A stretch of 20,090 nt of DNA, from NCBI GenBank assembly GCA_043746165.1, contig JAYTRM010000225.1, positions 1 to 20,090 on the forward strand, in the 5' to 3' direction. This DNA comes from Bdellovibrionales bacterium (GTDB taxonomy: Bacteria > Bdellovibrionota > Bdellovibrionia > Bdellovibrionales > JAMPXM01). This document shows, piece by piece, positions 90 to 14,192 of the stretch. The position numbers and the translations under genes are program-made. Below the pieces are notes generated by a model. The model was not told the origin of the DNA, ran no database searches, and saw nothing but the letters and a program-made list of their open reading frames with translations. Each line of letters begins with the position of its first letter. Within the stretch, counting starts at the first letter, position 1.

Positions 90-851
90 TCACGGTGTAT
101 CCCCTTTTTTTAACGATAGATTTTGTGCTCGGGCCGCAATTTGCTCGAGCTCATGAATAGCTTCGGGCAATTCAACCCGGGAGGAATTCGTTTCCATGGC
201 CGCGATCGCCGCCTGCGCTTGGGCCAACGCCCCAAGTGCCTTTTCGTTTTCGTCGAGTGTTTGTTTGGCTTTATCAATCATCGGTTGAGCGGTTGCTTCT
301 CGCGCTCCGCTTACTGAGGCTTGATTGAGCGATTCGACCGCATCCCTAAGCTGCAAAAAGATTGCAGAGCCACTGATGCGAATACTGTTTTCAAATCGCG
401 AATAGCTGAGCTCGCCGGGACTTAGTTTTTCTTGGAGCAAGTGGCTTGCGTTTTTGAGACTCGCTTCGAGTCGCGCAAGCTGCGTCTGCACGCGCGCGGC
501 TTGCGGCTGAAGGGGCGGCTCTAAACACAGACTCCCGAGCCGATCACGCATTATTTTAAGTTCAGGGGGTAAGCTCATCGACTGCTCGTGCTGTGCCGTG
601 ACTTTTTTAGCAGCTTGAATTGCAAAAAATAGTGCCAAACCGCAAGCTCCGCCCGCGAGGAGCAAAAGACCATGCGTAGCGAACGCCACTGTCGCAATCC
701 CCGCACAGCCAGCAAACGCAACCATCGGTTTAGAAAACTGCCACCTTGAAGCCGGTTTGGCCGCAGGGCCCGACACAGCCGAGAGCTGACCGAGCTGCGA
801 CGGCGACGTGGATATTATTGGCAGACTGTTCGGATCTTGACTGTCGGACAT
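90..851 (-). CDS. hypothetical membrane-anchored protein: two predicted N-terminal TM helices followed by a long alpha-helical/coiled-coil region; possibly XpaC-like, not established
   Basis: The 253-aa ORF has stop TGA at 90-92 (plus-strand tca). A hydrophobic stretch MVAFAGCAGIATVAFATHGLLLLAGGACGLALFFAI is followed by a Q/A/L/E-rich helical sequence. It is divergent from the SPFH operon and shares the 852-1023 intergenic region with it. No catalytic motif was recognised. Confidence 0.6.
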   Translation of the reverse strand: MSDSQDPNSLPIISTSPSQLGQLSAVSGPAAKPASRWQFSKPMVAFAGCAGIATVAFATHGLLLLAGGACGLALFFAIQAAKKVTAQHEQSMSLPPELKIMRDRLGSLCLEPPLQPQAARVQTQLARLEASLKNASHLLQEKLSPGELSYSRFENSIRISGSAIFLQLRDAVESLNQASVSGAREATAQPMIDKAKQTLDENEKALGALAQAQAAIAAMETNSSRVELPEAIHELEQIAARAQNLSLKKGDTP

Positions 852-959
852 AACGAAAACGATGCCATAGCTTGAGTCACGAAGTCAGCTGTGAAGCTCT
901 GACGCAATCCAGCGACATTCAACTCTTTCGATTTGATGAATCGAGTTGGGGTTTTTCAT

Positions 960-988
960 TTGGCAGAAGGCGTTTTGATCTCTATTCT
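960..988 (+). promoter_or_regulatory. candidate sigma70-type promoter: TTGGCA (960-965), 17-bp spacer, TATTCT (983-988)
   Basis: Read directly in the sequence. It is 5/6 to the -35 consensus and 4/6 to the -10 consensus with optimal 17-bp spacing. The predicted TSS of about 995 lies upstream of RBS AAGGAAG (1012-1018) and ATG 1024. Confidence 0.35.
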
Positions 989-1023
989 TTGCCAATTAGA
1001 CAGTGTTGATAAAGGAAGACCGT

Positions 1024-2001
1024 ATGGGCATCATGAGTTTTCTTCGCGGGCAAATGATCGACAACATCGAGTGGAATGAACACGGCGACGGCGTCCTAGT
1101 TTTTAAATATCCGATGCACGACAACGAAATCCAAAACGGCGCGCAGCTCACGGTTCGCGAAACCCAAGCCGCGATGTTTGTCAACGAGGGTCAGATCGCC
1201 GACCTCTTTGGCCCCGGTCTCCATCAAATCGCGACCAAGAATTTGCCAGTTTTGACGGCACTCAAGAGTTGGGAGCGAGGTTTCTCTTCGCCCTTTAAAT
1301 CTGATATTTTCTTCTTTAGCCTTCGTGAACAGGTCAACCAGAGGTGGGGGTCGCAGCAACCGATCGCGATTCGTGACAAAGAGTTAGGACCAATCCGAAT
1401 TCGCGCTTTTGGCAGCTTTTCGTACCGGATCAACGATCCGAAATTATTTTTTAAGAAACTGAGCGGTTCGCGCGATGTGTACGGTACCGAAGATCTCGAC
1501 GGGCAATTGAAGGCTCTTATCATCACTTCACTCTCAAGCTTCTTCGGCAAAGCTGACGTGTCGTTCTTTGATATGGCGGCCAATCAGTCGAAATTTTCTG
1601 AGACGATGAAGGCCAATTTGATCGAGCCTTTTGCGGATTACGGAATGGAGCTTTGCAACTTTTATGTGCAGAGCATTTCGCTTCCTGAAGAGGTCCAGGC
1701 CCAGATCGACAAAATGGCTTCGATGCGCATGACCGGGGACTTGCAAAAATTCGCGCAGTTTCAAGGCGCCTCGAGTATTCCCATCGCGGCTGCCAACACC
1801 GGTGGAGGTGCGGCGAGCGCCGGCGTAGGTCTCGGAATTGGCATGGCAATGGCGCAAAATCTTCAATCGGCAACGACAACTGCGCCCGCTGAAGATCCGC
1901 TTCAAAAGATCAATCAGCTTCACGAGCTGTTGGTCAAAAACATCATCACGCAGGCCGAGTTCGATGCCAAAAAAGTCGAGCTCTTGAAACGGATCACTTG
2001 A
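1024..2001 (+). CDS. SPFH/band-7 family protein (COG4260-type, B. subtilis YdjI-like) with C-terminal SHOCT-like tail
   Basis: The N-terminus MGIMSFLRGQMIDNIEW..VLVFKYP..IQNGAQLTVRETQAAMFVNEGQIADLFGPG is typical of the so-called putative-virion-core / SPFH family. A Gly/Ala-rich linker follows, and the C-terminal LLVKNIITQAEFDAKKVELLKRI resembles a SHOCT domain. The ORF track starts at GTG 1003. ATG 1024 is preferred here because AAGGAAG sits 5 nt upstream and the putative TSS is at about 995. Confidence 0.8.
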   Translation: MGIMSFLRGQMIDNIEWNEHGDGVLVFKYPMHDNEIQNGAQLTVRETQAAMFVNEGQIADLFGPGLHQIATKNLPVLTALKSWERGFSSPFKSDIFFFSLREQVNQRWGSQQPIAIRDKELGPIRIRAFGSFSYRINDPKLFFKKLSGSRDVYGTEDLDGQLKALIITSLSSFFGKADVSFFDMAANQSKFSETMKANLIEPFADYGMELCNFYVQSISLPEEVQAQIDKMASMRMTGDLQKFAQFQGASSIPIAAANTGGGAASAGVGLGIGMAMAQNLQSATTTAPAEDPLQKINQLHELLVKNIITQAEFDAKKVELLKRIT

Positions 2002-2004
2002 CGG

Positions 2005-2649
2005 ATGAAGAAATTTTCCTGTCCTTCTTGCGGCGCTGAAGTTTTAATTCAATCAACGGCTACGATTTTCACCGTCTGTAAATACTGCAAGTCAACTCTT
2101 GTCCGTAAGGATACGGATCTTGAGTCGATTGGCAAAATGGCCGATCTTAAAGAAGATGCGTCTCCCCTACAAATCGGAACCTCGGGCAAATACCGAGCAG
2201 CGGGACTTGTTGCCAGCGACTTTCTCGTCATCGGTCGCGTTCGCGTCAGTTGGGAAGATGGCTTTTGGAACGAGTGGTTTGTACGCTTTGACGACGGTCT
2301 TGGAGGCTGGTTGGCCGAAGCCCAGGGCGATTACATGCTGAGTTTTGAAGTCACCTCGCCGGTCACAGTTCCGAAGCTCACTGACCTTGAGCCCGAAAGT
2401 GAAGTGACAATTGGAAAAATCAAATACTTAGTGAGCGATATCAAAACGGTTACCTACACTTTTGCCGAGGGTGAGCTACCGTTCATAGCGCCGCAAGGTT
2501 TCAAGGGCCAATCAGTCGACCTCGAGGCCGGCGAAAATGACTTTGCGTCGATCAGCTATAGCCAAGAGGGAAACGATGTCTTCGTCGGTCACTATATAGA
2601 GTTTGATGATTTTCATTTTCAAAACCTAAGGGCGATTGATGGCTGGTGA
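2005..2649 (+). CDS. zinc-ribbon + DUF4178-like protein (YdjG/YdjH-like)
   Basis: The N-terminal 4-Cys ribbon is CPSCGAEV...CKYCKST. The downstream region is aromatic/Trp-rich (WEDGFWNEWFVRFDDGLGGWLAEAQGDY), as in DUF4178. The gene starts 3 nt after the SPFH gene stop. Confidence 0.75.
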   Translation: MKKFSCPSCGAEVLIQSTATIFTVCKYCKSTLVRKDTDLESIGKMADLKEDASPLQIGTSGKYRAAGLVASDFLVIGRVRVSWEDGFWNEWFVRFDDGLGGWLAEAQGDYMLSFEVTSPVTVPKLTDLEPESEVTIGKIKYLVSDIKTVTYTFAEGELPFIAPQGFKGQSVDLEAGENDFASISYSQEGNDVFVGHYIEFDDFHFQNLRAIDGW

Positions 2650-3976
2650 TTCCGATTCTAACCCGTCTAACCCGTCTGCCAAGACCATGCCCGCGCCACC
2701 GCCCGTCCAGCCAAGCGCGGGTTTGACGAGTTTCTCGTGCCCCTCATGTGGCGCCGCCGTCGTTTTGCACGCGGCCGGCGCGACTCTGACCGCGGCCTGT
2801 TCGGCTTGCGGCGCTATTTGCGACAATACCAACGGCACCTACACGCTTGTCTCAAAGTCACTTGCCAAGCAGACCATAAGACCTGCGATCGCTCTCGGCA
2901 CAAAAGGAAAACTCCGCGGGCAGCTTTACCAAGTGATTGGCTTCATGGTGCGCTCCGAAGAGAATTACCCTGACCAGGCTTGGGCCGAATATCTGCTCTA
3001 CAATCCGTATTTAGGTTTTGCCTGGCTGTCGGTTTACAATGGACACTGGACGCTTTACAAAACCACGAAAAATCAACCCAAAATGCTGCCCAACCGGCGC
3101 AGCTACACCTTTCACGGTGAGACCTACTCCGTATTTCACAACGCCACGGCTGTCGTGCGCTATGTGATCGGAGAATTTTACTGGCAAGTGCGCTCGGGTG
3201 AGAAAGTTAAGACTCTCGACGCAATTCACCCTCCACACATCATCTCTCGCGAACTAAGCGATGGCGAAAACGTTTGGTCGTTCGGCGACTACATCCGTAT
3301 CGATGAAATCAAAGCGGCGTTTAATCCGTCACCGCTGATCGCTCCGCTCGGCGTCGCCCCGAACCAACCCACTGAGACCGGTCGTGTCTCGATGAACTGG
3401 CTGATTTTCGCGCTCGCCGTAATCTTGCTTTTTCTAGCGCAGATTTATGGGCCGGCCTTCAAAGAACAAAAGGCGGTCGCTTCGCAGCGATTGATCGTTC
3501 CGGCCACGGGTTTGCATGACACCGAGATCGCCGGTTTTTCAAATCCCGAAAATTCGAGCCACGCAGTCATCCGGATCCGGGCTGACGTCAGCCAATCTTA
3601 CGTCACCGTCAATCTTCGCCTCGTTTCAGATGATCCTGGCAATACGACGGTCCACGAGTTTGAAAAAGATTTTTCTTATTACGAAGGCTACGAAGACGGC
3701 GAGCACTGGAGCGAAGGCGACAGTTCGTCAGAGTTTCTCATCAACGCGTTGCCACGCGGTCATTACCGAGTTCTCTTGAGCGCAACACCTGAGCCGGGAC
3801 ACAATGCGCTTCTCACGACGGAGGTCAATCTTGCGCCGCACGTTTGGTCGAATTTCTGGCTTGCAGTGTTTATCCTCCTCATCTATCCGGCTTGGATGGC
3901 ATTAAAATCAAGGTCGTTTGAACACCGCAGATGGGATGACAGCGAGTTCAATCCATTTGAAAAAGAAGATGATTAA
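2639..3976 (+). CDS. zinc-ribbon + DUF4178-like membrane protein, longer paralog with two TM segments and an extra C-terminal domain
   Basis: A Pro-rich N-terminus is followed by CPSCGAAV...CSACGAIC and a DUF4178-like region (QAWAEYLLYNPYLGFAWL, GEFYWQV). There is a TM at about residues 250-270 (WLIFALAVILLFLAQIYG), a roughly 110-aa domain, a second TM (FWLAVFILLIYPAWMAL) and an acidic tail. The ORF track start TTG 2636 is immediately followed by ATG 2639. The gene overlaps the upstream gene by 11 nt. Confidence 0.75.
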   Translation: MAGDSDSNPSNPSAKTMPAPPPVQPSAGLTSFSCPSCGAAVVLHAAGATLTAACSACGAICDNTNGTYTLVSKSLAKQTIRPAIALGTKGKLRGQLYQVIGFMVRSEENYPDQAWAEYLLYNPYLGFAWLSVYNGHWTLYKTTKNQPKMLPNRRSYTFHGETYSVFHNATAVVRYVIGEFYWQVRSGEKVKTLDAIHPPHIISRELSDGENVWSFGDYIRIDEIKAAFNPSPLIAPLGVAPNQPTETGRVSMNWLIFALAVILLFLAQIYGPAFKEQKAVASQRLIVPATGLHDTEIAGFSNPENSSHAVIRIRADVSQSYVTVNLRLVSDDPGNTTVHEFEKDFSYYEGYEDGEHWSEGDSSSEFLINALPRGHYRVLLSATPEPGHNALLTTEVNLAPHVWSNFWLAVFILLIYPAWMALKSRSFEHRRWDDSEFNPFEKEDD

Positions 3977-3990
3977 TATCGGGAGTCGTG

Positions 3991-4221
3991 ATGGCCGCAA
4001 ATGATACAGAAAAAAAAGAAGACCTTCCGAAGCCTCCCAGGCCGCAAACTCCGCGAAGCGTTTTGATCTATGCTGTCTTTTGCCTTGTCGTTGCGAGCGC
4101 GATGGCGGTGGCCAACCGCCGCGGATGGTTCCCAACTTATGGAATTTTTTCTGGTGAGAATTCAATGCACTCGCACTACCGCCCGATCTATTACGGCGGC
4201 TACGGCATTCATGGAAAATAA
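3991..4221 (+). CDS. small single-TM membrane protein, unknown function
   Basis: 76 aa. GGGAG (3981-3985) lies 5 nt upstream of ATG 3991. The N-terminus is charged and Pro-rich, followed by one hydrophobic helix (VLIYAVFCLVVASAMAVA) and a Tyr/Gly-rich tail. Support is weaker because the protein is small and has no recognisable family. Confidence 0.5.
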   Translation: MAANDTEKKEDLPKPPRPQTPRSVLIYAVFCLVVASAMAVANRRGWFPTYGIFSGENSMHSHYRPIYYGGYGIHGK

Positions 4222-4243
4222 ATTTTAAAGGAGTAGACTCAAA

Positions 4244-4462
4244 ATGGAAATCATCATGAACCCCGGTACCATCCTCAACGCCGTCATTTTCTCGATGATC
4301 GGTCTCTGTCTTTTCGGCTTCGGCTTTTGGATCATCGACCGTTTCACGCCCTATCATTTATGGAAAGAGGTGATCGAAGAAAAAAATATCGCCCTGGCGA
4401 TTATCGTCGGCGCTATCTCGATCGGCCTCTGCAACATTATCGCCGCCGCGATTAACGGCTAA
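4244..4462 (+). CDS. DUF350-like small two-TM membrane protein (E. coli YjfL-like)
   Basis: 72 aa. AGGAG (4229-4233) precedes ATG 4244. It has two hydrophobic helices separated by a WKEVIEEKNIALAI amphipathic segment, which is the size and pattern of the DUF350 family. Confidence 0.7.
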   Translation: MEIIMNPGTILNAVIFSMIGLCLFGFGFWIIDRFTPYHLWKEVIEEKNIALAIIVGAISIGLCNIIAAAING

Positions 4463-4470
4463 CTGCGTCA

Positions 4471-5973
4471 ATGGCTGTTCTTTTTCTCATCTCAGCTTTT
4501 GTCGTTTCGACCTGCGGGCTCATCTACGAACTGGTCAGCGGCGCTCTGGCCAGCTACCTGCTCGGCGATTCAGTCACTCAGTTTTCGATCGTGATCGGCG
4601 TTTATCTCTTTGCGATGGGGCTTGGCTCATACTTGACGCGTTTTGTCCGCGGCAACCTCGCTCTGACTTTTGTTTCGATCGAAATCGTGGTCGGTGTGGT
4701 CGGCGGCTTTTCGTCCGCCGCACTTTTCTTGCTCTTTGCTCACGTCACGCATTTTCGCGTGGCGCTTTACTTCTTTGTCACTCTTTCTGGCGCTTTGGTC
4801 GGTGCCGAAATTCCATTACTTCTCAGAATCTTGCAAGACCAGTTTGAATTTAAAGAACTCGTCGCCAAAGTTTTTGCCTTTGACTACGTCGGGGCGCTGA
4901 TTGCCTCGGTTCTCTTTCCTCTCTTATTTATTCCGCACCTGGGCATGATCCGCACGAGCTTCTTTTTCGGCATGCTTAACGTCACAGTCGCGCTCGTGAG
5001 CATTCACGTCCTTGGGAAGAAATCGCGAGGGTTCCTGGTGCTGCGCGGAAGCGCGCTCACCGCACTTATTGCACTGGTGATCGGATTTATTTATTCGGAA
5101 AAACTCGAATCATTCGCCGAGGCCTCGGTTTTTCCTGGTCAGGCAGTTTTCGCAAAGACGACGAGCTACCAGCGCATCTTGATCACGCGGCAAGAAAACG
5201 ACATTCGACTTTTTCTCAATTCGCATCTGCAATTTAGCTCGCGCGACGAGTACCGCTACCACGAAGCCTTGATTCACCCGGGCCTGAGCTCGATTGCTAA
5301 ACCCGAGCAAGTTTTGGTACTCGGCGGTGGCGACGGTATGGCCGTGCGAGAAATCCTCAAAGAGTCCGCTGTCAAAGCCGTCACCTTGGTGGATCTCGAC
5401 GGCGAGATGACTAAGATTTTTTCAACTCTTGATTTTCTTCGCAAGCTCAACGGCAGCTCATTTACTGATCCGCGCGTGACCGTGATCAACGACGATGCGT
5501 TTTTATGGCTTAAGGTTCATCCCGAAAAAAAATTCGACTTTATCGTTTTGGATTTTCCGGATCCCGCCAATTACTCAATTGGCAAGCTCTACACTCTCAC
5601 TTTCTTTCGGCTGCTCCGCGAGGCTTTGGCAGACGGTGGACGGGTTGTCATTCAAAGCACCTCTCCCCTTGCCGCGCGTAAGTCTTACTGGTGCGTGGCC
5701 CATACGCTAGCGGCGGCCGGTTTTTCAGTCGTAACGCCTTACCATACTTACGTACCTTCGTTTGGCGAGTGGGGATTTGTTATGGGTTCCGAAACGCCAT
5801 TTCAACCTTCGCGTCTGGTGCCAGGCCTTAAATTTATCAGGCCTGAGTCGATCGCGGCGCTGCTTGAATTTCCGCTCGACATGGCCGAAGTCCCGACTGA
5901 GATCAATCGCCTCAACAACCAGGCGCTGGTTCGCTACTACGAAGCCGAGTGGTCAGAATTCATGGTGAATTGA
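4471..5973 (+). CDS. speE: polyamine aminopropyltransferase (spermidine/spermine synthase family) fused to an N-terminal polytopic membrane domain
   Basis: The C-terminal half carries the spermidine-synthase signature LVLGGGDGMAVREIL, DLDGEM and FDFIVLDFPDP. The first roughly 210 aa contain about 7 hydrophobic helices. The gene starts 8 nt after the DUF350 gene stop. Confidence 0.85.
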   Translation: MAVLFLISAFVVSTCGLIYELVSGALASYLLGDSVTQFSIVIGVYLFAMGLGSYLTRFVRGNLALTFVSIEIVVGVVGGFSSAALFLLFAHVTHFRVALYFFVTLSGALVGAEIPLLLRILQDQFEFKELVAKVFAFDYVGALIASVLFPLLFIPHLGMIRTSFFFGMLNVTVALVSIHVLGKKSRGFLVLRGSALTALIALVIGFIYSEKLESFAEASVFPGQAVFAKTTSYQRILITRQENDIRLFLNSHLQFSSRDEYRYHEALIHPGLSSIAKPEQVLVLGGGDGMAVREILKESAVKAVTLVDLDGEMTKIFSTLDFLRKLNGSSFTDPRVTVINDDAFLWLKVHPEKKFDFIVLDFPDPANYSIGKLYTLTFFRLLREALADGGRVVIQSTSPLAARKSYWCVAHTLAAAGFSVVTPYHTYVPSFGEWGFVMGSETPFQPSRLVPGLKFIRPESIAALLEFPLDMAEVPTEINRLNNQALVRYYEAEWSEFMVN

Positions 5974-5974
5974 G

Positions 5975-7633
5975 ATGCTATCGCGCCGCCAAGCTTTAAA
6001 GCAGATCACCGCGTTTGCTGCGCTCGTAGCTGGTGGTTTGACTCTGGTAAAACGTAAGAAACCAAGCGAGACTGATTTTCCAGTCAGACTTCTCGGCCCA
6101 ACATTAGCCGCCGGGCACCGCCTACGAAGCGGCGATAAATTTCCCGAGCCAAGTGCTACCCGCAAAGCTCAAGTCGTGATTGTCGGAGGCGGCATTGCAG
6201 GACTTTCAGCGGCGTGGCGACTCAAGAAAAAGGGAGCTACCGATTTTCACATTTTGGAGCTAGAGCCCGAGATCGGCGGTAATTCTCGTTCGGGCAGAAA
6301 CTCCGTCAGTCGCTATCCCTGGGGCGCCCACTACGTGACCTTGCTCAGTGAAGAAGCTAGCATTGCCCGCGAGCTTCTCTCCGAACTCGGCATTATCACC
6401 AGCCATCGCGGTGAGGCGACAACTTACAACGAATACGATCTCTGTCATGCTCCTCACGAACGCCTTTACATCGCCAGAAAGTGGCAAGAGGGACTTGTTC
6501 CCAAAATCGGCACCTCAGCCGAGGACACCGAACAGACAAATGAATTTTTTAGGCATGTCGAAGAAATGCGCTTCAAAAAAGGTCGTGATCAGAAGCCGGT
6601 GTTTGCGATTCCCCTCGAATTCAGCTCGCGCGATCCGGAGCTTTTAAAATTAGATCAGATCACAATCGCCGACTACATGTGGGCTCGCGGCTGGAATTCG
6701 CAGGCGTTGCATTGGTATGTTAACTATTGCTGCCGAGATGACTACGGAACTCCTCACACGCAAACTTCGGCTTGGGCAGGACTCCATTATTTTAGCTCTC
6801 GCCGTAGTCAAAGCGAAGGCGCAGCGGGAACTTCCGTCATTACCTGGCCTGAAGGCAACGGCCGTATCGTCGACGGACTCGAGAGTTTGATTCAAGATCC
6901 CAATCAAGATCCCAATCACGAACGTATTCACCGGGGGCAAATGGCGATTCGCGTACAGAACGTAAAAAGCGGGGTGGAGGTCGACGCGCTCGATACGAAA
7001 ACTGGTCTTGTGACGCGCTGGCAGGCCCAAGCAGTCATCGTGGCTTCACCACGGTTTATCGCGGCTCGCCTCGGGCCCGAGCTCACTGATCAACAGAGCG
7101 TTTTTTTAAAAGATCTCTCTTATTCCCCATGGGTTGTCGCCAACATCACATTAAAATCCTTACCCGTGAACAATCGACCTAACCCGGGCGCTCCGCTTTC
7201 GTGGGATAACGTTATTTATCAAAACGACTCGCTCGGCTACGTCGTCGCCAATCACCAGGACACGAAAATTCACTCTGGCGAAACCGTGTGGACATATTAC
7301 CGTCCCCTCGACGCACTTTCTCCGGCCGAGGCGCGCGAGGAGGCGATCAAGCGCCAGCCATCTGAGTGGCGCGAAATAATTTTAGCCGATCTCGGCGTCG
7401 CTCATCCTGATTTGACCGAGCTCATCACCTCGATGGATGTCTGGGTCTGGGGTCACGCGATGATTCGCCCGACGCCGGGTTTTATCTGGGGCGAAACCCG
7501 CCGGGCCATGCAGAAGCCGTTGGGTAAAATTCACTTTGCCCACTCAGACATGAGCGGCCTCTCGCTTTTTGAGGAAGCCAATTTCCACGGCGCACGGGCG
7601 GCCGACGAGGTCATAAGCCATGGCCTCACCTAA
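5975..7633 (+). CDS. FAD-dependent oxidoreductase (amine-oxidase/phytoene-desaturase superfamily) with twin-arginine (Tat) signal peptide
   Basis: The N-terminus MLSRRQALKQITAFAALVAGG contains the S-R-R-x-A-L-K Tat motif plus a hydrophobic h-region. The Rossmann dinucleotide motif VVIVGGGIAGLSAAWRL is followed by an acidic residue at the end of the second beta-strand (ILELE). The gene starts 1 nt after the speE-like stop. Confidence 0.85.
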   Translation: MLSRRQALKQITAFAALVAGGLTLVKRKKPSETDFPVRLLGPTLAAGHRLRSGDKFPEPSATRKAQVVIVGGGIAGLSAAWRLKKKGATDFHILELEPEIGGNSRSGRNSVSRYPWGAHYVTLLSEEASIARELLSELGIITSHRGEATTYNEYDLCHAPHERLYIARKWQEGLVPKIGTSAEDTEQTNEFFRHVEEMRFKKGRDQKPVFAIPLEFSSRDPELLKLDQITIADYMWARGWNSQALHWYVNYCCRDDYGTPHTQTSAWAGLHYFSSRRSQSEGAAGTSVITWPEGNGRIVDGLESLIQDPNQDPNHERIHRGQMAIRVQNVKSGVEVDALDTKTGLVTRWQAQAVIVASPRFIAARLGPELTDQQSVFLKDLSYSPWVVANITLKSLPVNNRPNPGAPLSWDNVIYQNDSLGYVVANHQDTKIHSGETVWTYYRPLDALSPAEAREEAIKRQPSEWREIILADLGVAHPDLTELITSMDVWVWGHAMIRPTPGFIWGETRRAMQKPLGKIHFAHSDMSGLSLFEEANFHGARAADEVISHGLT

Positions 7634-8714
7634 TCAGCAGCCCTGGATCAGATCGCGTCAGTTCGACGTTTGTTTTATTCTCGCGCCCGCATTTGCGACA
7701 AGTTTTTTTGTGCTTTTTTTCCGTCACTGGCTTCAGCCTTATGCCGAAGTGGGCCCTGTTGCCTGGCTCATGCTCGTTGTCGGGATTGATGTTGCGCACG
7801 TCTATTCTTCACTATTTCGAACCTACTTAGATCGCAATCTCAAGGCGAGACCTTTGCTCTGGCAAGTTCCGCTCGTTTGTTGGGTGATAGGAGCACTACT
7901 TTATTCGGTCAGACCTGAAATTTTTTGGTCGGGCCTCGCGTATTTTGCGGTTTTTCACTTCGTTCGTCAGCAGTACGGCTTTGTCATGATCTACTCACGC
8001 TTTGAAAAGCACACGAGATTGAGCCGCGCTCTCAATCAGTTGGTGATCTATGCCGCTACCGTTTACCCTCTTCTTTACTGGCACTCCCACCTCCCACGGC
8101 GCTTTGTTTGGTTTATCGAGGGCGATTTTTTTTTCGCGGTACCGGCCTCGGTCACAAGCACCTTTGGTTGGATTGAAGTTGCTTTGCTCAGCATTTACGC
8201 GGCTCGTGAAATCCGGGCGTACTGGTTTCATAAAAGCTTCAACCTCCCTCGCAACTTACTCATTCTGGGCACGCTCGCCTCGTGGACGATCGGCATCGTT
8301 TCGCTCAACAACGATCTAGCATTCACCATCACCAACGTAATATCGCACGGCATTCCCTACGTCGCTTTATTGTGGCACTACGGCAATCGCAAAGATCCCA
8401 CGCCGGGTTTTAAAATTCTCCGGCAAAATTTGTTCTGTGCTCGCTGGGTGCCGATTTTTCTCGGGCTTCTTTTGCTCTTAAGTTATCTCGAAGAAGGACT
8501 CTGGGATGGGCTCGTGTGGCGCGATCACCTGCAGCTTTTTCCCCAGTTCGCGGCTCTTCCAATTCTCACCGATTCGAATTTGCTCGTTGTTTTGGTGCCA
8601 TTTTTGGCTTTGCCGCAAGCCACACATTACTTGTTTGATGCTTTTTTGTGGAGAAGTACGGGTACCGATAATGGCTGGAAAAGCATCTTGTCAGGCGCGG
8701 GAGATTTAAAATGA
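7620..8714 (+). CDS. polytopic integral membrane protein of unknown function (about 8 TM)
   Basis: The 364-aa ORF is hydrophobic throughout, with no recognisable catalytic motif. It overlaps the upstream oxidoreductase by 14 nt and the downstream speH by 4 nt (ATGA), so it is embedded in the polyamine operon. Confidence 0.75.
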   Translation: MASPNQQPWIRSRQFDVCFILAPAFATSFFVLFFRHWLQPYAEVGPVAWLMLVVGIDVAHVYSSLFRTYLDRNLKARPLLWQVPLVCWVIGALLYSVRPEIFWSGLAYFAVFHFVRQQYGFVMIYSRFEKHTRLSRALNQLVIYAATVYPLLYWHSHLPRRFVWFIEGDFFFAVPASVTSTFGWIEVALLSIYAAREIRAYWFHKSFNLPRNLLILGTLASWTIGIVSLNNDLAFTITNVISHGIPYVALLWHYGNRKDPTPGFKILRQNLFCARWVPIFLGLLLLLSYLEEGLWDGLVWRDHLQLFPQFAALPILTDSNLLVVLVPFLALPQATHYLFDAFLWRSTGTDNGWKSILSGAGDLK

Positions 8715-9058
8715 CCTTCTCTGTCGGCATTCACCATCTCGTCGAACTCAAAGACTGCGACCCTCGCGCGATCAATGATCTTGAAGGGCTACGTTTGGCG
8801 CTTCTCAATGCCGTCGAAGCTTCAGGCGCCACGATCATCACCGATGTTTTTCACCCGTTTTCTCCGCATGGAGTGACCGGAGTCATCGTTATCGCCGAAT
8901 CCCATGTCTCGATCCACACCTGGCCTGAACTCGGCTATGCCGCACTCGACATTTTCACTTGCAGTCACAAAATGAACTCCCAACTCATTGTGGATCAATT
9001 GAAGGCTTTCACATGTTCGAAAACCCTGGAAGTCTCTAGTTACAGACGAGGACCCTAG
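8711..9058 (+). CDS. speH: S-adenosylmethionine decarboxylase proenzyme, small pyruvoyl type (SpeH/SpeD class 1)
   Basis: 115 aa. The conserved ...VIVIAESHVSIHTWPELGYAALDIFTC block is present. Glu63-Ser64 (codons 8897-8902) is the canonical self-cleavage site that generates the pyruvoyl group. Confidence 0.9.
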   Translation: MTFSVGIHHLVELKDCDPRAINDLEGLRLALLNAVEASGATIITDVFHPFSPHGVTGVIVIAESHVSIHTWPELGYAALDIFTCSHKMNSQLIVDQLKAFTCSKTLEVSSYRRGP

Positions 9059-9293
9059 CCCAAGGTCGAGAATCGATCCAAGTTCTACTCACACCTGAGG
9101 GCGCCTTCTATACTTGAGAGAGTCTAAAAAAACCTCGGAGGTCGAATGCGCGCTGGTCGTGCTATTTCTCATTCATCGCTCGTGTGCAGGAACAAAACAA
9201 CAATCACGGCGCGAAGTTTCGCCTCGTGAGTCTCGACCAAGCCATTGCTGAACACAACGTCCAGTTTCCACAAAATCATCAAGAGGGTCGCCA

Positions 9294-9830
9294 ATGAAAT
9301 CATTTAGTGTCGTCGCTTTAACGTTCGCGGTCACCATCTCAACGGCTTTTGCAAAAGAACACTTTAAAGTCCACACGCACCAAGACGTGATCAAACGGTA
9401 CACCTATTGGAAAGTTGCGAGCGTGGTCGATTACTTCTCATTCCTTCAAGAGGCAGACGACGCAGCGAGGGAGAAAAAAATTCTCGCTTGCGATCCGAGC
9501 CTTGAGCAAGCGCGAGATATATTCGGCGGCGAACTTCACTCCCTCGCCGACGGCGCAAGGAGGCCTGAACTCGACCGCTATCTTAAAAATCCGGTGAGCT
9601 ACGTTGGTCGCATCAAGACATGCGTTGCCGACTGCAGTTGCAATGCCATCGCGATGGTCCTAGCCGACGCTGATCTCACGCTGAATGATAAGGCAGAACA
9701 CAACCGAAATAAAACAGATTTGGATGCGAGTATCAAAGCGCAGCCCAAGGATCAAGACCTCGTCTGCGCGAAAAAAATGACTTGGTACTGCGGCAGCGGC
9801 CTGCAGACTTATCTTTATAAAAGCAAATAG
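9294..9830 (+). CDS. secreted Cys-rich protein of unknown function
   Basis: The signal peptide MKSFSVVALTFAVTISTAFA is clear, with cleavage predicted before KEHF. The mature part has 7 Cys, so disulfides are likely. GAGGG is upstream of the start. Confidence 0.7.
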   Translation: MKSFSVVALTFAVTISTAFAKEHFKVHTHQDVIKRYTYWKVASVVDYFSFLQEADDAAREKKILACDPSLEQARDIFGGELHSLADGARRPELDRYLKNPVSYVGRIKTCVADCSCNAIAMVLADADLTLNDKAEHNRNKTDLDASIKAQPKDQDLVCAKKMTWYCGSGLQTYLYKSK

Positions 9831-9839
9831 GGAGCCTTG

Positions 9840-10400
9840 ATGAAACAATCCACGCCCATACCGGCTCACGTTGTACCTCTGAACTTCTCCCTAGCTTTTA
9901 TTATGGTCGTTGCAACAATTCTTGCAACGCCTAGGGCAGCCCGATCGCAAACTGATGATGAGCCGAAGCCTCATAAAAAGGGTCTGATCGACCAGGTCAG
10001 CGGCCAAGGCTTCGGCATGGCTGGCTGCGGTGTCGGATCTATTTTATTTGGCGAGACGCCTGGCCTCGCCCAAGTTGCTGCCTCACTCACCAATCAAATT
10101 TACTTCAACAACACCTTTGCTGGAACTTCGGGAACTTCCAACTGCGAAGACGCCGACCCTATCGACGCGAGAACAGCGCAAGTATTCATCGACTCAAACC
10201 GCGTCGCGATCGAAAACGATATCGCCAAAGGTAGCGGCGAGACTCTGCAGGCTTTTTTTGAACTCGCCGGTTGCAGCCCACGTGGTGAATCTACCTTAAG
10301 CCTTCATCGCCATTACCAAGAGATATTTGTTCCGGGTGCAAAAAGCATCGACGTAGTAAAATCGATTCGTCAATTCACAACCTGCTCGCGCCTAGGATGA
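9840..10400 (+). CDS. secreted small protein, DUF3015-like, paralog A
   Basis: GGGAG (9830-9834) is 5 nt upstream of ATG 9840. The ORF track starts at TTG 9837. There is a hydrophobic N-terminal signal/anchor. It shares GCG-x-GS, SGTSNC, IAKGSGET, LHRHY..IFP and a C-terminal C-x-x-LG with the next gene. Confidence 0.75.
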   Translation: MKQSTPIPAHVVPLNFSLAFIMVVATILATPRAARSQTDDEPKPHKKGLIDQVSGQGFGMAGCGVGSILFGETPGLAQVAASLTNQIYFNNTFAGTSGTSNCEDADPIDARTAQVFIDSNRVAIENDIAKGSGETLQAFFELAGCSPRGESTLSLHRHYQEIFVPGAKSIDVVKSIRQFTTCSRLG

Positions 10401-10432: not shown

Positions 10433-10909
10433 ATGACAAAGCGCTTTGCCTACCTCACTTTTACGGCCATCACGCTCTTAGCTCACTGCTGCTGGGGCGC
10501 AAGCAGACCATACGGCTCGGGAGGCTGCGGCCTCGGAAGTTTAGTGATGGGTAAGGATGGCAACCAAGTTCTTGCGATGACTCTAAATGCGACGGGTACT
10601 CAGACTTTTGCCATAAGCTCGGGAACCAGCAATTGCATCGACGGCGGGCTCATCAAAAAGAAAAAACAAGTTCGCGCCTTCATAGAGATCAACAACCAAA
10701 AGCTTGCGAGCGAGATTTCAAAAGGCCGCGGCGAGACTGTCAGTAGTCTGTCAAGGCTTCTTGATTGCCAAGATGACCAGGCCTTTGCATTGGGTTTACA
10801 CCGCCACTACTCAACTATTTTCCCGACAGAAAATACGCCTGCCGCCGAGGTTGAGCACGCCATTCGAAGCGTGATCAAAATTGACCTCGCGCAAATCTGT
10901 CTCGGATAA
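10433..10909 (+). CDS. secreted small protein, DUF3015-like, paralog B
   Basis: The signal peptide is MTKRFAYLTFTAITLLAHCCWGA. The protein is colinear with paralog A and has the same four conserved Cys positions (GGCGLGS, SGTSNC, LLDC, ICLG). Confidence 0.75.
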   Translation: MTKRFAYLTFTAITLLAHCCWGASRPYGSGGCGLGSLVMGKDGNQVLAMTLNATGTQTFAISSGTSNCIDGGLIKKKKQVRAFIEINNQKLASEISKGRGETVSSLSRLLDCQDDQAFALGLHRHYSTIFPTENTPAAEVEHAIRSVIKIDLAQICLG

Positions 10910-10912
10910 CCT

Positions 10913-12739
10913 GTGCTTCGGACCCTAGGGATCATTATGATCCTGACCAGCTCGGTCAGCGCGGCCGGCCAGGTGGCCGAGCTTTCCAAGTCCTCGGCCT
11001 GGCAAAAGCTGAATCATTTTCACCGCGTTGATCCAGTGACGGAGCTGAAACGGAACCTCGAACTCTTTCGAAACTCGCAAGCTGATAGGGCTCAGATTAA
11101 CGACGATAGCCAACTTGAACAAAAGCCCGAATGCCAAATGCCGGCGAGATTTATCTTTTTCAAAAAAAACCTGCCGGAAGCCTCGAGCTGGCTGATGCCC
11201 CGTTGCCCGAAGTGGCAGCACTTCTCGCAAGGATTAGCGGCCAAGTCGGTCACCCTGGTTTTTTCAAGTTATTATCTAGGAAATCCGACTTCGGCATTCG
11301 GTCACACTTTTTTGCGGCTTAATCGCGACGATGTCGGGCACGAACATCAGAGCCTGCTCGATTCAGGTGTTGGTTTTGCGCTGAGTGCAACAAAACAAAA
11401 TTCTATTTCGTACCTATTGGGAGGAATGCTGGGCTGGAACCTCGGCGAGTTCTCGGTCGTCCCCTATTACTTGAAAGTTTTAGAGTACAACAATTTTGAG
11501 TCACGCGACCTCTGGGAGTATGATCTCAATCTAACGCCAGAGGAGATCGAACTCTTAGTCGCTCATCTTTGGGAGCTCGGCCACGCGCAAATTCATTATT
11601 CCTACCTCAACCACAACTGCAGCTCGTTAGTTCTGGCCGCTCTCGAGGCCGCAGCCCCGAGACTGAATCTCCTAGGCCGCCTACCGTTCTGGGTTTTGCC
11701 CGCCGAGTCCGTCAAGGTGCTCTACCAAGAACCGGGCCTAGTCGGGGGATTTCATTACCGAGCGTCAAAGCGTTCGCAATCTGAGTTCGCTCTCGGAGGC
11801 CTCTCACCTGGCGACCGCAAAGAAGTGACAGAGATTTTAGAAACCAACGCGGCACCGATTGTCCATGGCGATGATCCTGCGCGCGAGCTCGACACGGTGA
11901 TCGATTTCATCGATTATCGATATTTTAAAGAGCTTCTTAAAGGCGATGTCGACGTTCAAAGGCGAAAGCAAGCTGCGTTGGTAGCTCGCAGTCAACTTCC
12001 TGCAGAAGCTGGCTTTGATCAGCAAGCTTCGATTCCCGCACAGGAAATTCCGCAGACCTCCCACGCACCGTCTCGACTCCAGGTTGGCCAACTCATTTCA
12101 CGTCTCGGTGAACGCTCACTTCTTATCGGACAGCGCTTTGCGCTGCATGACCAACTCGATCCGCAACAGGGGTATCCCGAAAGTTCAGAAATCGGCTTTT
12201 TTGACTTCGGCATTCGAGTTCTAAAACAGCCTAGCGTGATCGAGGATAATCAGGGCACAATCCGGGTCGACCATCTCTACGCTTTAAATCTCAAATCATA
12301 CCCTGATCTCACACGGTTGATACCGACTTCATCATGGAATTTTCGTCTCGGCGCCGAACGAACGTGGGACGAATCTTGCCTCAACTGCGTCGCCGGCGTA
12401 ATCGGCGCGGCTTCTGGCGCAAGCTTTAGCGTTCATAAAAAATTGATCGCCACGATTCTCCTTACCGGTGACCTCTCCACTTCCACAGAGTTTTCCAGCT
12501 CACCAGTGAAAAGTCGCCTCGGTCCAGAATTCAACCTACGAGCTATAATCACTCCCCGCCTCGTCTTCAACATAAACTCAACGTATTTACATCTTTTCTT
12601 TGCCGGGCCACCCGACACCTACCGAGTGACTGAAGAGATTCGCTGGACTTTAGCGGAGCCGCTCGCCGCCGGCCTGAAGTTTCAGCAATTACCTCGCGGC
12701 GACGTCGAGTCGTCGGCAAGTTTATATTATTACTACTGA
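10913..12739 (+). CDS. large signal-peptide protein. The N-terminal periplasmic domain is possibly Lnb-N/DUF4105-like and the C-terminus looks like an outer-membrane beta-barrel ending in ...LYYYY.
   Basis: The GTG start is 3 nt after the paralog B stop. The signal peptide is MLRTLGIIMILTSSVSAAG. AFGHTFLRLNRDD resembles the motif I recall for DUF4105, but the family assignment is uncertain. The C-terminal third has alternating hydrophobic strands and an aromatic C-terminus, typical of an OMP beta-signal. Confidence 0.7.
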   Translation: MLRTLGIIMILTSSVSAAGQVAELSKSSAWQKLNHFHRVDPVTELKRNLELFRNSQADRAQINDDSQLEQKPECQMPARFIFFKKNLPEASSWLMPRCPKWQHFSQGLAAKSVTLVFSSYYLGNPTSAFGHTFLRLNRDDVGHEHQSLLDSGVGFALSATKQNSISYLLGGMLGWNLGEFSVVPYYLKVLEYNNFESRDLWEYDLNLTPEEIELLVAHLWELGHAQIHYSYLNHNCSSLVLAALEAAAPRLNLLGRLPFWVLPAESVKVLYQEPGLVGGFHYRASKRSQSEFALGGLSPGDRKEVTEILETNAAPIVHGDDPARELDTVIDFIDYRYFKELLKGDVDVQRRKQAALVARSQLPAEAGFDQQASIPAQEIPQTSHAPSRLQVGQLISRLGERSLLIGQRFALHDQLDPQQGYPESSEIGFFDFGIRVLKQPSVIEDNQGTIRVDHLYALNLKSYPDLTRLIPTSSWNFRLGAERTWDESCLNCVAGVIGAASGASFSVHKKLIATILLTGDLSTSTEFSSSPVKSRLGPEFNLRAIITPRLVFNINSTYLHLFFAGPPDTYRVTEEIRWTLAEPLAAGLKFQQLPRGDVESSASLYYYY

Positions 12740-12812: not shown

Positions 12813-14192
12813 TCAACGGACGATTTGTTTAAGTGCGTTGAAAAAATACGAGTCGATCTTTTTAAGGATTGTTCCTTCCATATCGAGCACGGCTTGACTT
12901 GGATTCATCGCCGGCGAGCCCTGTGTTTTGAGAACCCGCTGGCAGAACTCGTTGGCAACCGCCACAATCTTCGTCATTGGATGGATTTGCATCCGGCTCA
13001 TCCGATTCGGAAAGCCTTCACCGTCGCAACTCTCATGATGCTCGCGCACGATCCGGATCACGACCTCCGGCATCGAATTCGATTGACTTAGGACCTCGGC
13101 GCCACGGGTGGCATGTGTATCGTAAAACGCCCGAACGCTTTGCGGCCAATTCTCTCTTGGCGTATTCAAAATACCCGGATGAATATCGCGTAAGCCGATA
13201 TCATGAAGTAAAGCCGCGGCGGTGAGATTGAGTAAATCCGTTGGATTTTCCCAACCCAAAGCTTTGGCAATCATGACGGAGTAAACGCTGACACCGACAC
13301 CGTGACTAAAGAGGTTATCGACGTGCTGGCTTAGCATGTGCAAGAGTTCGTTCATTTCGGCTGATTCGGCCAAAAGGTTAACAGTCGACTGCACGTACGC
13401 CATCGAGCTCTCAAACAATGCGGTATCGAGTCCGTCTTTGGATAGTTGGTCGATAAAAACTTCGGACGTGTGACGAAGGATATCGATACGCCGTTCGTTA
13501 CGCACCGGATCGCTAACGACCGGCTTTGAGCGCCCCTTGAAATTTGTACCAAGGAAATGACGGAAATCTGCTCCGCGCAAAAATAAAAACTCAACGCCTT
13601 TGCCGCGAATTTCTTCCACTCGTTTATTAGTCAAATCAATCCCGCGGTGAGCGATCTTGACGAATTTCTTGACTGATAGCTGCAAAAATATGGGGTAGTT
13701 AGCAAACTTCGGTTGCGAGAACTCGCTGATCAGGATTTTCGCGTAATCATCGTCGAGTTCGGGTTCTGCTTGGCCCACGGAGATTTTCTGCCCAGCCGAC
13801 TTCGGGGAGGTCGATCTGCCAGAGGACATCTTCAAGCAGGCAGCGACTGCCTTGATGATACTTTCGCTTTCGATCGGCTTCATCACAAAAGCATCGGCAA
13901 GCCGTGACTCTGAATCCTGGCCGGCGACCTGACTTTGCAGAACTTCGGCCATATCTGTCATAAGGACGAGCGGCAGACTCGAATTTTCGCGGATGTATTT
14001 TGAAATCTCCAGACCGTCGACGTGCTCGCCGCCGACGTCGCAGACGACGATATCAAAAACCTGTTTTCGTATAAAAGTCATCGCTGTCTTAGAATCATGC
14101 GCCAGAACCACTTCATGGCCAAAGGCGGTGAACGTTTTTTGCAATTTTGTAGACGCACTCTCATCTTCGTCAATCAGTAGAATTCGACTCAC
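12813..14192 (-). CDS. response regulator: N-terminal receiver (REC) domain plus C-terminal HD-GYP-type phosphodiesterase domain (GFP variant of the GYP motif)
   Basis: REC has the acidic pair at the start (LLIDEDE), the phospho-acceptor Asp52 in DIVVCDV, LVLMTD and FVMKP. The HD domain has LLHDIGL (H330-D331) and HHESCDGEGFP (residues 385-395, nt 13008-13040). The GTG start overlaps the upstream stop (GTGA). Confidence 0.9.
   Translation of the reverse strand: MSRILLIDEDESASTKLQKTFTAFGHEVVLAHDSKTAMTFIRKQVFDIVVCDVGGEHVDGLEISKYIRENSSLPLVLMTDMAEVLQSQVAGQDSESRLADAFVMKPIESESIIKAVAACLKMSSGRSTSPKSAGQKISVGQAEPELDDDYAKILISEFSQPKFANYPIFLQLSVKKFVKIAHRGIDLTNKRVEEIRGKGVEFLFLRGADFRHFLGTNFKGRSKPVVSDPVRNERRIDILRHTSEVFIDQLSKDGLDTALFESSMAYVQSTVNLLAESAEMNELLHMLSQHVDNLFSHGVGVSVYSVMIAKALGWENPTDLLNLTAAALLHDIGLRDIHPGILNTPRENWPQSVRAFYDTHATRGAEVLSQSNSMPEVVIRIVREHHESCDGEGFPNRMSRMQIHPMTKIVAVANEFCQRVLKTQGSPAMNPSQAVLDMEGTILKKIDSYFFNALKQIVR

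Follow-up and report, generated by a model that had tools for sequence, protein, structure and literature searches.

A membrane-fused aminopropyltransferase of the NF002956 family in a conserved Bdellovibrionales operon, with a catalytic domain that may face the periplasm

The 20,090-nucleotide stretch analysed here (contig JAYTRM010000225.1 of a Bdellovibrionales bacterium, positions 1 to 20,090; hereafter the window) carries an operon whose sixth gene encodes an aminopropyltransferase (APT) fused to a membrane domain. The gene is an uninterrupted, ATG-started open reading frame (ORF) on the plus strand at 4471–5973, which specifies 500 residues and has zero internal stops in the ORF list. 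Kyte–Doolittle hydropathy reveals about seven hydrophobic segments in residues 1–209, and an AlphaFold2 model, for which 22 homologues served as input (mean pLDDT 86.1), gives seven long helices spanning residues 2–31, 34–58, 63–91, 95–121, 127–157, 159–181 and 186–207. Following helix 7, the modelled chain enters a short linker helix (209–220), and then a beta-hairpin and a Rossmann APT fold; Pfam detects PF01564 (Spermine_synth) over residues 261–440 (E = 1.4e-34). The preliminary description of this DNA had pictured an intact catalytic signature behind seven helices, and its three motifs were located at residues 285–289 (GGGDG; nt 5323–5337), 308–313 (DLDGEM; nt 5392–5409) and 355–364 (FDFIVLDFPD; nt 5533–5562). 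Hydropathy, the model, the Pfam match and the motifs all bear that picture out, with seven transmembrane (TM) helices in the model.

Along the gene, all on the plus strand, helices 1–6 (residues 2–181; 4474–5013) make up a bundle resembling one six-helix half of the major facilitator superfamily (MFS). Next comes helix 7 (residues 186–207; 5026–5091), which the model and its conservation suggest is a connector taking the chain across to the other side of the membrane, and an acidic linker helix (residues 209–220; 5095–5130) in which E217 is 90% conserved in the alignment. The APT domain proper, delimited by PF01564, Foldseek and residue alignments, comprises N-terminal beta-hairpins and a Rossmann core (residues 224–440; 5140–5790), and is followed by a family-specific C-terminal extension (residues 441–500; 5791–5970) whose FPxDM motif and W494 are kept among close relatives. 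PDB sequence and Foldseek searches matched the C-terminal domain only, and found no full-length solved structure.

The whole ORF matches NF002956 (PRK03612), a curated NCBIfam equivalog model named 'polyamine aminopropyltransferase' for exactly this architecture, in which a polytopic N-terminal membrane domain of ~200 residues precedes PF01564. The score is 627.4 bits against a cutoff of 472 (E = 1.6e-188), with residues 3–496 aligned to positions 20–520 of 522. At least 8000 homologues were scored, all of them significant; among the matches listed (120 homologues), query coverage is 91–100% at similar length, and the nearest relatives among those listed share at most 78% identity with the fusion protein. 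When the membrane domain was the sole query, 2264 cluster representatives at 50% identity were recovered, the complete ones being ~490–560 residues long. In one-genome-per-species data the fusion gene occurs in Acidobacteriota, Bacteroidota, Proteobacteria, Bdellovibrionota, Melainabacteria, Verrucomicrobiota, Leptospiraceae, Nitrospinota and Myxococcota. M. tuberculosis SpeE (Rv2601) is also a member of the NF002956 (PRK03612) family, whose proteins have ~500–520 residues; the literature on Rv2601 returned nothing beyond a repeated 'spermidine synthase' annotation. NF037959, a subfamily of fused MFS/spermidine synthase proteins, is related but does not include the protein (28.6 bits against a cutoff of 40).

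These data also bear on whether the fusion is an artefact, that is, the result of a frameshift in sequencing or assembly that merged two genes, and that the preliminary description had placed around 5080–5110 as the finding that would overturn it. The curated model is matched from end to end, hundreds of same-length homologues exist in isolate genomes, and the identical gene call appears on independent ENA and Logan contigs; the artefact is excluded, with virtually no probability left to it. By sequence, the ORF is intact and belongs to the known PRK03612/NF002956 family. The novelty that had been implied for the fusion did not hold up, the architecture being already catalogued in NF002956 and very widespread in bacteria, and the operon already described: Ravi et al. 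2024 (PMC11237479) present both the fusion and the operon type, citing Li et al. 2019 for the linkage to an S-adenosylmethionine decarboxylase (AdoMetDC), and Li et al. 2025 (PMC12803844) note that, outside fungi, a fungal membrane/APT-like fusion has no homologues other than the bacterial fusions. A literature search for functional characterization, or for periplasmic aminopropyltransferases, found nothing later than these two papers.

Foldseek matched the catalytic domain to 7xif, 1uir, 3anx, 6bq2, 6qmm and 1jq3 (E ~1e-16 to 1e-14), the best solved relatives being Pyrobaculum calidifontis SpeE (7xif), the Thermus triamine/agmatine APT (1uir, 3anx), Synechococcus SpeE (6qmm) and thermospermine synthase (6bq2). 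Residue-level alignment identified a complete catalytic set (Q234, D259-E-Y-R-Y263-H-E, GGGD288G, D308, D310, D342 and D361-F-P-D364-P), which is 88–100% conserved across the 50 diverse representatives used to compute residue and helix conservation. Within this set, Q234, Y263, D288, D310, D342, D361 and D364 reach 96–100% (98% for D288 and D361, 96% for D364). In the D361-F-P-D364-P segment (5551–5565), D361 is the catalytic Asp and D364 the one that binds the amine; the two align with DSxDP of canonical SpeE, and correspond to D173 and D176 of human SpdS. All of the residues that characterize an APT dependent on decarboxylated S-adenosylmethionine (dcSAM) are present: the acid of GxG(D/E)G, a ribose-binding acid, the adenine-binding Asp, the DxxDP Asp pair and the catalytic Tyr. 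The first of these separates dcSAM users from S-adenosylmethionine (SAM) methyltransferases (PMC10349129), and D288, within GGGDG, would be the acid that selects dcSAM over SAM. Because this acid is retained and an AdoMetDC gene is linked, aminopropyl transfer is the chemistry expected from the sequence. A methyltransferase reading modelled on the fungal enzyme NHMT was ruled out by the conserved Asp288 and the linked AdoMetDC; the non-acidic GxGxG of the NHMT type is replaced here by GGGDG.

The acceptor, by comparison, is probably an amine other than putrescine, because the scores do not come near the cutoffs set for the canonical SpeE equivalogs (134.2 against 249.55 for TIGR00417; 156.3 against 260 for NF002010), and because relatives are reported not to make spermidine. 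According to Li et al. 2025 (PMC12803844), who cite Li et al. 2019, experiments showed that the bacterial fusion proteins play no part in spermidine/spermine biosynthesis. The label 'membrane-tethered polyamine synthase', as originally proposed, is doubtful on both counts. A plain membrane-anchored spermidine or polyamine synthase, making ordinary polyamines near the membrane, would agree with the complete catalytic signature, with the name of the NCBIfam model, and with nearest solved structures that are polyamine aminopropyltransferases. We nevertheless consider it improbable given the low SpeE scores and the report just cited, a membrane domain conserved as much as the active site, and a gene that is linked to a Tat-exported amine oxidase and stress-module genes, not to genes of putrescine synthesis.

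The membrane domain was examined for fold and conservation. One six-helix half superposes on MFS structures, and the six-helix bundle has the MFS fold; with only seven helices, the domain is not the twelve-helix, two-half transporter, and no Pfam MFS match to the fusion protein was found. Helices TM1, 2, 4 and 5 carry 2.6–3.2 bits per column, TM3 and 6 carry 2.2–2.3, and TM7, the least conserved part of the protein, carries 1.5 (1.47), compared to 2.5 for the catalytic core. In MFS domains, helices 1, 2, 4 and 5 line the cavity, and the conservation of the membrane helices in this family follows that pattern. Invariant polar residues are spread over helices 1–6 (Y19, E20, Y29, E113, P115, R119, D138, Y139 and N170), and three invariant acids, E20, E113 and D138, lie inside helices, which is compatible with a cationic ligand. 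Conservation equal to that of the catalytic core, together with the invariant acids, argues that the membrane domain is more than a mere anchor. The suggestion that it forms a substrate or product channel is accordingly compatible with an MFS-like fold and with the conservation, and stands to that extent. If the domain were instead an anchor, or a sensor that regulates catalysis under membrane stress without transport, the linkage of the gene to SPFH/Band-7, DUF350 and PspA-type modules would be readily understood; an MFS-half fold, peak conservation in precisely the helices that line the MFS cavity, and three buried invariant acids make this a poor prospect.

Which face of the membrane the catalytic domain occupies can be addressed from the distribution of positive charge. 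Lys and Arg were counted over 168 family relatives, with the seven helices present throughout the alignment. On average, 8.2 such residues fall in the N-terminus and loops 2–3, 4–5 and 6–7, versus 3.0 in loops 1–2, 3–4 and 5–6 plus the 20 residues after TM7. Loop 1–2 has practically zero Lys or Arg, helix 7 is preceded by a loop rich in both, and several N-terminal extensions are strongly basic, with up to 17 such residues. This bias predicts an N-in/C-out arrangement. An MFS half starts and ends in the cytoplasm, and therefore helix 7 is needed only if the C-terminal domain lies outside; that it is present throughout the relatives, yet poorly conserved, points to a role in placing that domain on the opposite side of the membrane.

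The adjoining oxidase is informative in the same respect. This FAD (flavin adenine dinucleotide) amine oxidase-like protein (5975–7633, plus strand; PF01593 over residues 74–547) starts 1 nt past the stop codon of the APT gene. Partner genes were counted by tblastn with the window proteins in 80 related loci from many phyla, up to a distance of 6 kb from the fusion gene; the oxidase is found in 70 of the 80, nearly always directly downstream. Its N-terminus has a twin-arginine SRRQALK followed by the hydrophobic stretch ITAFAALVAGGLTLV, and a signal resembling those of the twin-arginine translocation (Tat) pathway occurs in 39 of 68 orthologues under a strict rule, where shuffled sequences would give 2.0, and in 48 of 71 when the motif is the sole requirement. 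Because this twin-arginine signal is conserved, the partner oxidase is predicted to be exported and to act outside the cytoplasm.

Several oxidase orthologues carry a lipobox-like Cys. The window oxidase itself (5975–6060) has KRKK after the hydrophobic region and neither a lipobox Cys nor an obvious AxA site, and its N-terminus may act as an uncleaved Tat signal-anchor. In five Chryseobacterium loci (L051, L052, L057, L060 and L062) the oxidase gene lies ~2–5 nt past the fusion gene and its signal reads SRKDFLK, RK replacing RR, followed by a lipobox-like QYCGKK; a Tat or Sec lipoprotein variant is possible. A PDB search with the oxidase matched polyamine and monoamine oxidases over its FAD-binding N-terminus only.

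Taken together, the charge bias, an MFS-half fold with a seventh helix, and the Tat motifs of the adjoining oxidase favour a catalytic domain facing the periplasm, as the preliminary description had raised as one option; this C-out topology is a prediction from sequence and model that we regard as probable. In the chief rival reading the catalytic domain is cytoplasmic, either because the protein is N-out/C-in or because one helix does not span the membrane, such that a cytoplasmic amine is aminopropylated and the MFS-like part exports the product to the Tat-exported oxidase. It would spare dcSAM a crossing of the membrane, since the AdoMetDC of the operon lacks a signal peptide and makes this metabolite in the cytoplasm; moreover, the known aminopropyltransferases are all cytoplasmic, and an MFS-like fold suits an exporter. 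However, the charge bias points the opposite way, the basic N-terminal extensions would have to be translocated, and TM7 would be superfluous, with an MFS half already ending in the cytoplasm, even though it is present, if poorly conserved, in all 168 aligned relatives. On balance the cytoplasmic arrangement appears unlikely, though it deserves serious consideration.

The remaining genes of the operon, all on the plus strand and separated mostly by −14 to +22 nt, place the fusion in a recurrent context. The first gene (1003–2001) encodes an SPFH/Band-7 (Band_7_1) protein (PF13421, E = 2e-72; 33 of 80 genomes), whose C-terminal SHOCT match is weak and sub-threshold (20.7 bits against a cutoff of 27). 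It is followed by a soluble DUF4178 protein (2005–2649; 50 of 80) and by a second DUF4178 protein (2636–3976; PF13785; 69 of 80) in which a zinc ribbon at the N-terminus precedes two TM helices that, by hydropathy, lie on either side of ~130 residues. The zinc ribbon of the latter is of double CxxC type, and the helices (~248–276 and ~405–425) enclose a segment with a weak Y_Y_Y-like match; this protein probably crosses the membrane and has domains on either face. Immediately before the fusion gene, and 8 nt upstream of it, lies a small two-helix membrane protein of the DUF350 (YjfL-like) family (4244–4462; PF03994; 65 of 80). Downstream of the oxidase, a 364-residue polytopic membrane protein (7620–8714; 30 of 80), with ends overlapping its flanking genes, precedes a class 1b AdoMetDC (8711–9058; PF02675; TIGR03330 124 bits against a cutoff of 75.65; 51 of 80). 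The AdoMetDC has the self-processing site IAES/HVSIHTWPE, and is the likely supplier of dcSAM. Judged by these partner counts in the 80 related loci, this is a deeply conserved operon and not a chance neighbourhood.

Two members of the operon are less readily classified. Between the DUF4178 and DUF350 genes, a 77-residue ORF (3988–4221) encodes one TM helix with a Gly/Tyr/His-rich tail and has a gene call on both the ENA and the Logan contigs; it had zero tblastn matches in the 80 related loci and no usable Pfam match at E up to 10, and belongs to no family that was matched. The 364-residue membrane protein likewise lacks a Pfam or NCBIfam match, even at E up to 10. It contains His-bearing motifs (DVAHVYSS, FHFVRQQYG, ISHGIPY and ATHYLFDAFLWR), and could be a so far uncharacterised enzyme or transporter acting in this pathway. 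Consecutive genes overlap by 14, 14 and 4 nt at 2636–2649, 7620–7633 and 8711–8714, respectively, and only 1 nt lies between the APT gene and the oxidase gene, an arrangement that suggests coupled translation along the operon. An Rfam scan of the window detected zero riboswitches or other RNA families, and a promoter and terminator scan of 700–9400 yielded consensus-level matches only, with one promoter-like site at 960–988 ahead of the first operon gene.

The explanation that we consider best, and to which we give about an even chance as a whole, is dcSAM-dependent aminopropylation of a non-putrescine amine outside the cytoplasm, by an enzyme whose membrane part is half an MFS domain and whose gene belongs to a membrane-stress operon. 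In this scheme the cytoplasmic AdoMetDC would make dcSAM, and the fusion protein, inserted N-in/C-out, would hold its catalytic domain on the periplasmic face. The acidic, highly conserved MFS-like half would carry cationic dcSAM, or possibly the amine, through the membrane to reach the active site. The half-MFS domain would probably pair with a second copy into a full MFS-like bundle, because aminopropyltransferases are dimers. A non-putrescine amine would then be aminopropylated at the envelope, and the Tat-exported flavoprotein may act on the aminopropylated product or on its precursor. The SPFH, DUF4178 and DUF350 proteins would tie the system to the handling of membrane stress, in an SPFH/PspA-type module, as Ravi et al. 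propose (PMC11237479).

Several considerations weigh against an extracytoplasmic reaction. The main weakness is that a periplasmic active site requires an unproven translocation of dcSAM. Both dcSAM and SAM belong to cytoplasmic metabolism, the AdoMetDC lacks a signal peptide, and we know of no precedent in bacteria for dcSAM reaching the periplasm. The reaction would also release 5′-methylthioadenosine outside the cell. In addition, the inter-domain geometry of the full-length AlphaFold2 model is uncertain, with a pTM of 0.67.

A more specific version of extracytoplasmic aminopropylation can be advanced, although only tentatively. Two half-MFS copies, held together by the APT dimer, would constitute a complete MFS-like conduit that hands cytoplasmic dcSAM to the periplasmic active site, where an amine of the envelope is modified before the product is processed by the Tat-exported oxidase. 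Candidate targets would be lipid head groups, amines of the cell wall, protein N-termini or exported polyamines. If such a conduit exists, its reaction would be, to our knowledge, the first bacterial transfer of a SAM-derived alkyl group outside the cytoplasmic membrane.

The fusion family represents a very widespread system that consumes dcSAM and, it appears, makes no spermidine. Should the periplasmic orientation be true, the search for the acceptor would narrow to molecules of the envelope, and the failure of cytoplasmic complementation assays would be accounted for. That orientation would also predict a dedicated membrane passage for dcSAM, which would constitute new envelope biochemistry and would link polyamine-type chemistry to SPFH/PspA membrane-stress modules.

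Beyond the operon, the downstream plus strand carries a 178-residue ORF (9294–9830) with a signal-peptide-like N-terminus, tandem DUF3015 paralogues (9837–10400 and 10433–10909), and an Lnb_N/DUF7840 protein (10913–12739). On the minus strand, a response-regulator receiver is fused to an HD/HD_5 (HD-GYP-like) domain at 12813–14192, and a 736-residue protein at 15240–17450 combines E1_dh, Transket_pyr and Transketolase_C, a fused alpha/beta E1 dehydrogenase component. Three further ORFs of the window had no usable Pfam match at E up to 10.

Relative to known systems, the fusion protein, a metagenomic member, shares with NF002956 proteins the architecture of an APT domain behind ~210 residues of membrane helices, with no structural difference. 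MFS transporters such as FLVCR1 (8qcs), YajR (3wdo) and NorA (7lo8) have twelve helices where this membrane domain has a single half, and sequence identity to them is 8–14%. The soluble APTs (7xif, 1uir, 3anx and 6bq2) are 26–30% identical to the C-terminal domain and have its catalytic residues; they possess large acceptor pockets, are cytoplasmic, and lack both the membrane domain and the C-terminal FPxDM extension. An MFS/SpdSyn-like fusion clustered with class 1b AdoMetDC and DUF350 was reportedly described by Li, Kurihara, Kim, Liang and Michael in 2019. The fusion type, the AdoMetDC and DUF350 linkage and the non-putrescine implication are reportedly common to both; the membrane part is called MFS there and is resolved here into one six-helix half plus a connector helix, and the periplasmic orientation is a proposal of the present analysis.

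The operon is closest to one in the work of Ravi et al. 2024 (PMC11237479), who describe polyamine-linked PSP-type operons, including a band-7/SHOCT variant, and propose a role in membrane stress. With that variant it shares a band-7 protein with SHOCT (a sub-threshold match here), a 7TM synthase-like fusion, DUF350, DUF4178, AdoMetDC and a polyamine oxidase, and it has in addition the 364-residue membrane protein and the 77-residue ORF; within this 20-kb window there is no PspA or CesT/Tir gene. For the oxidase (5975–7633), a precedent for a Tat-exported periplasmic flavoenzyme that oxidizes polyamines is the P. aeruginosa spermidine dehydrogenase SpdH, which carries a Tat signal (PMC11107197), the likeness being one of description.

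The comparison most relevant to orientation is with the fungal NHMT (AN4663), in which a seven-helix N-terminal domain of ~215 residues precedes a spermidine-synthase-like Rossmann domain, and which, as a resident of the endoplasmic reticulum (ER), modifies secreted lytic polysaccharide monooxygenases at their mature N-terminus (PMC10349129). The two proteins are alike in layout, a likeness of described domain order and not of aligned membrane domains, and they differ in chemistry: in NHMT an Ile replaces the acid of GxG(D/E)G and SAM serves for methylation, whereas the fusion protein keeps Asp288 and the AdoMetDC linkage. ER residence and secreted substrates imply a lumenal catalytic domain for NHMT, and by analogy this implies a placement topologically equivalent to a periplasmic one. 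If a conduit of the kind outlined above operates in the bacterial protein, the same logic would also explain how SAM is supplied to NHMT in the ER lumen.

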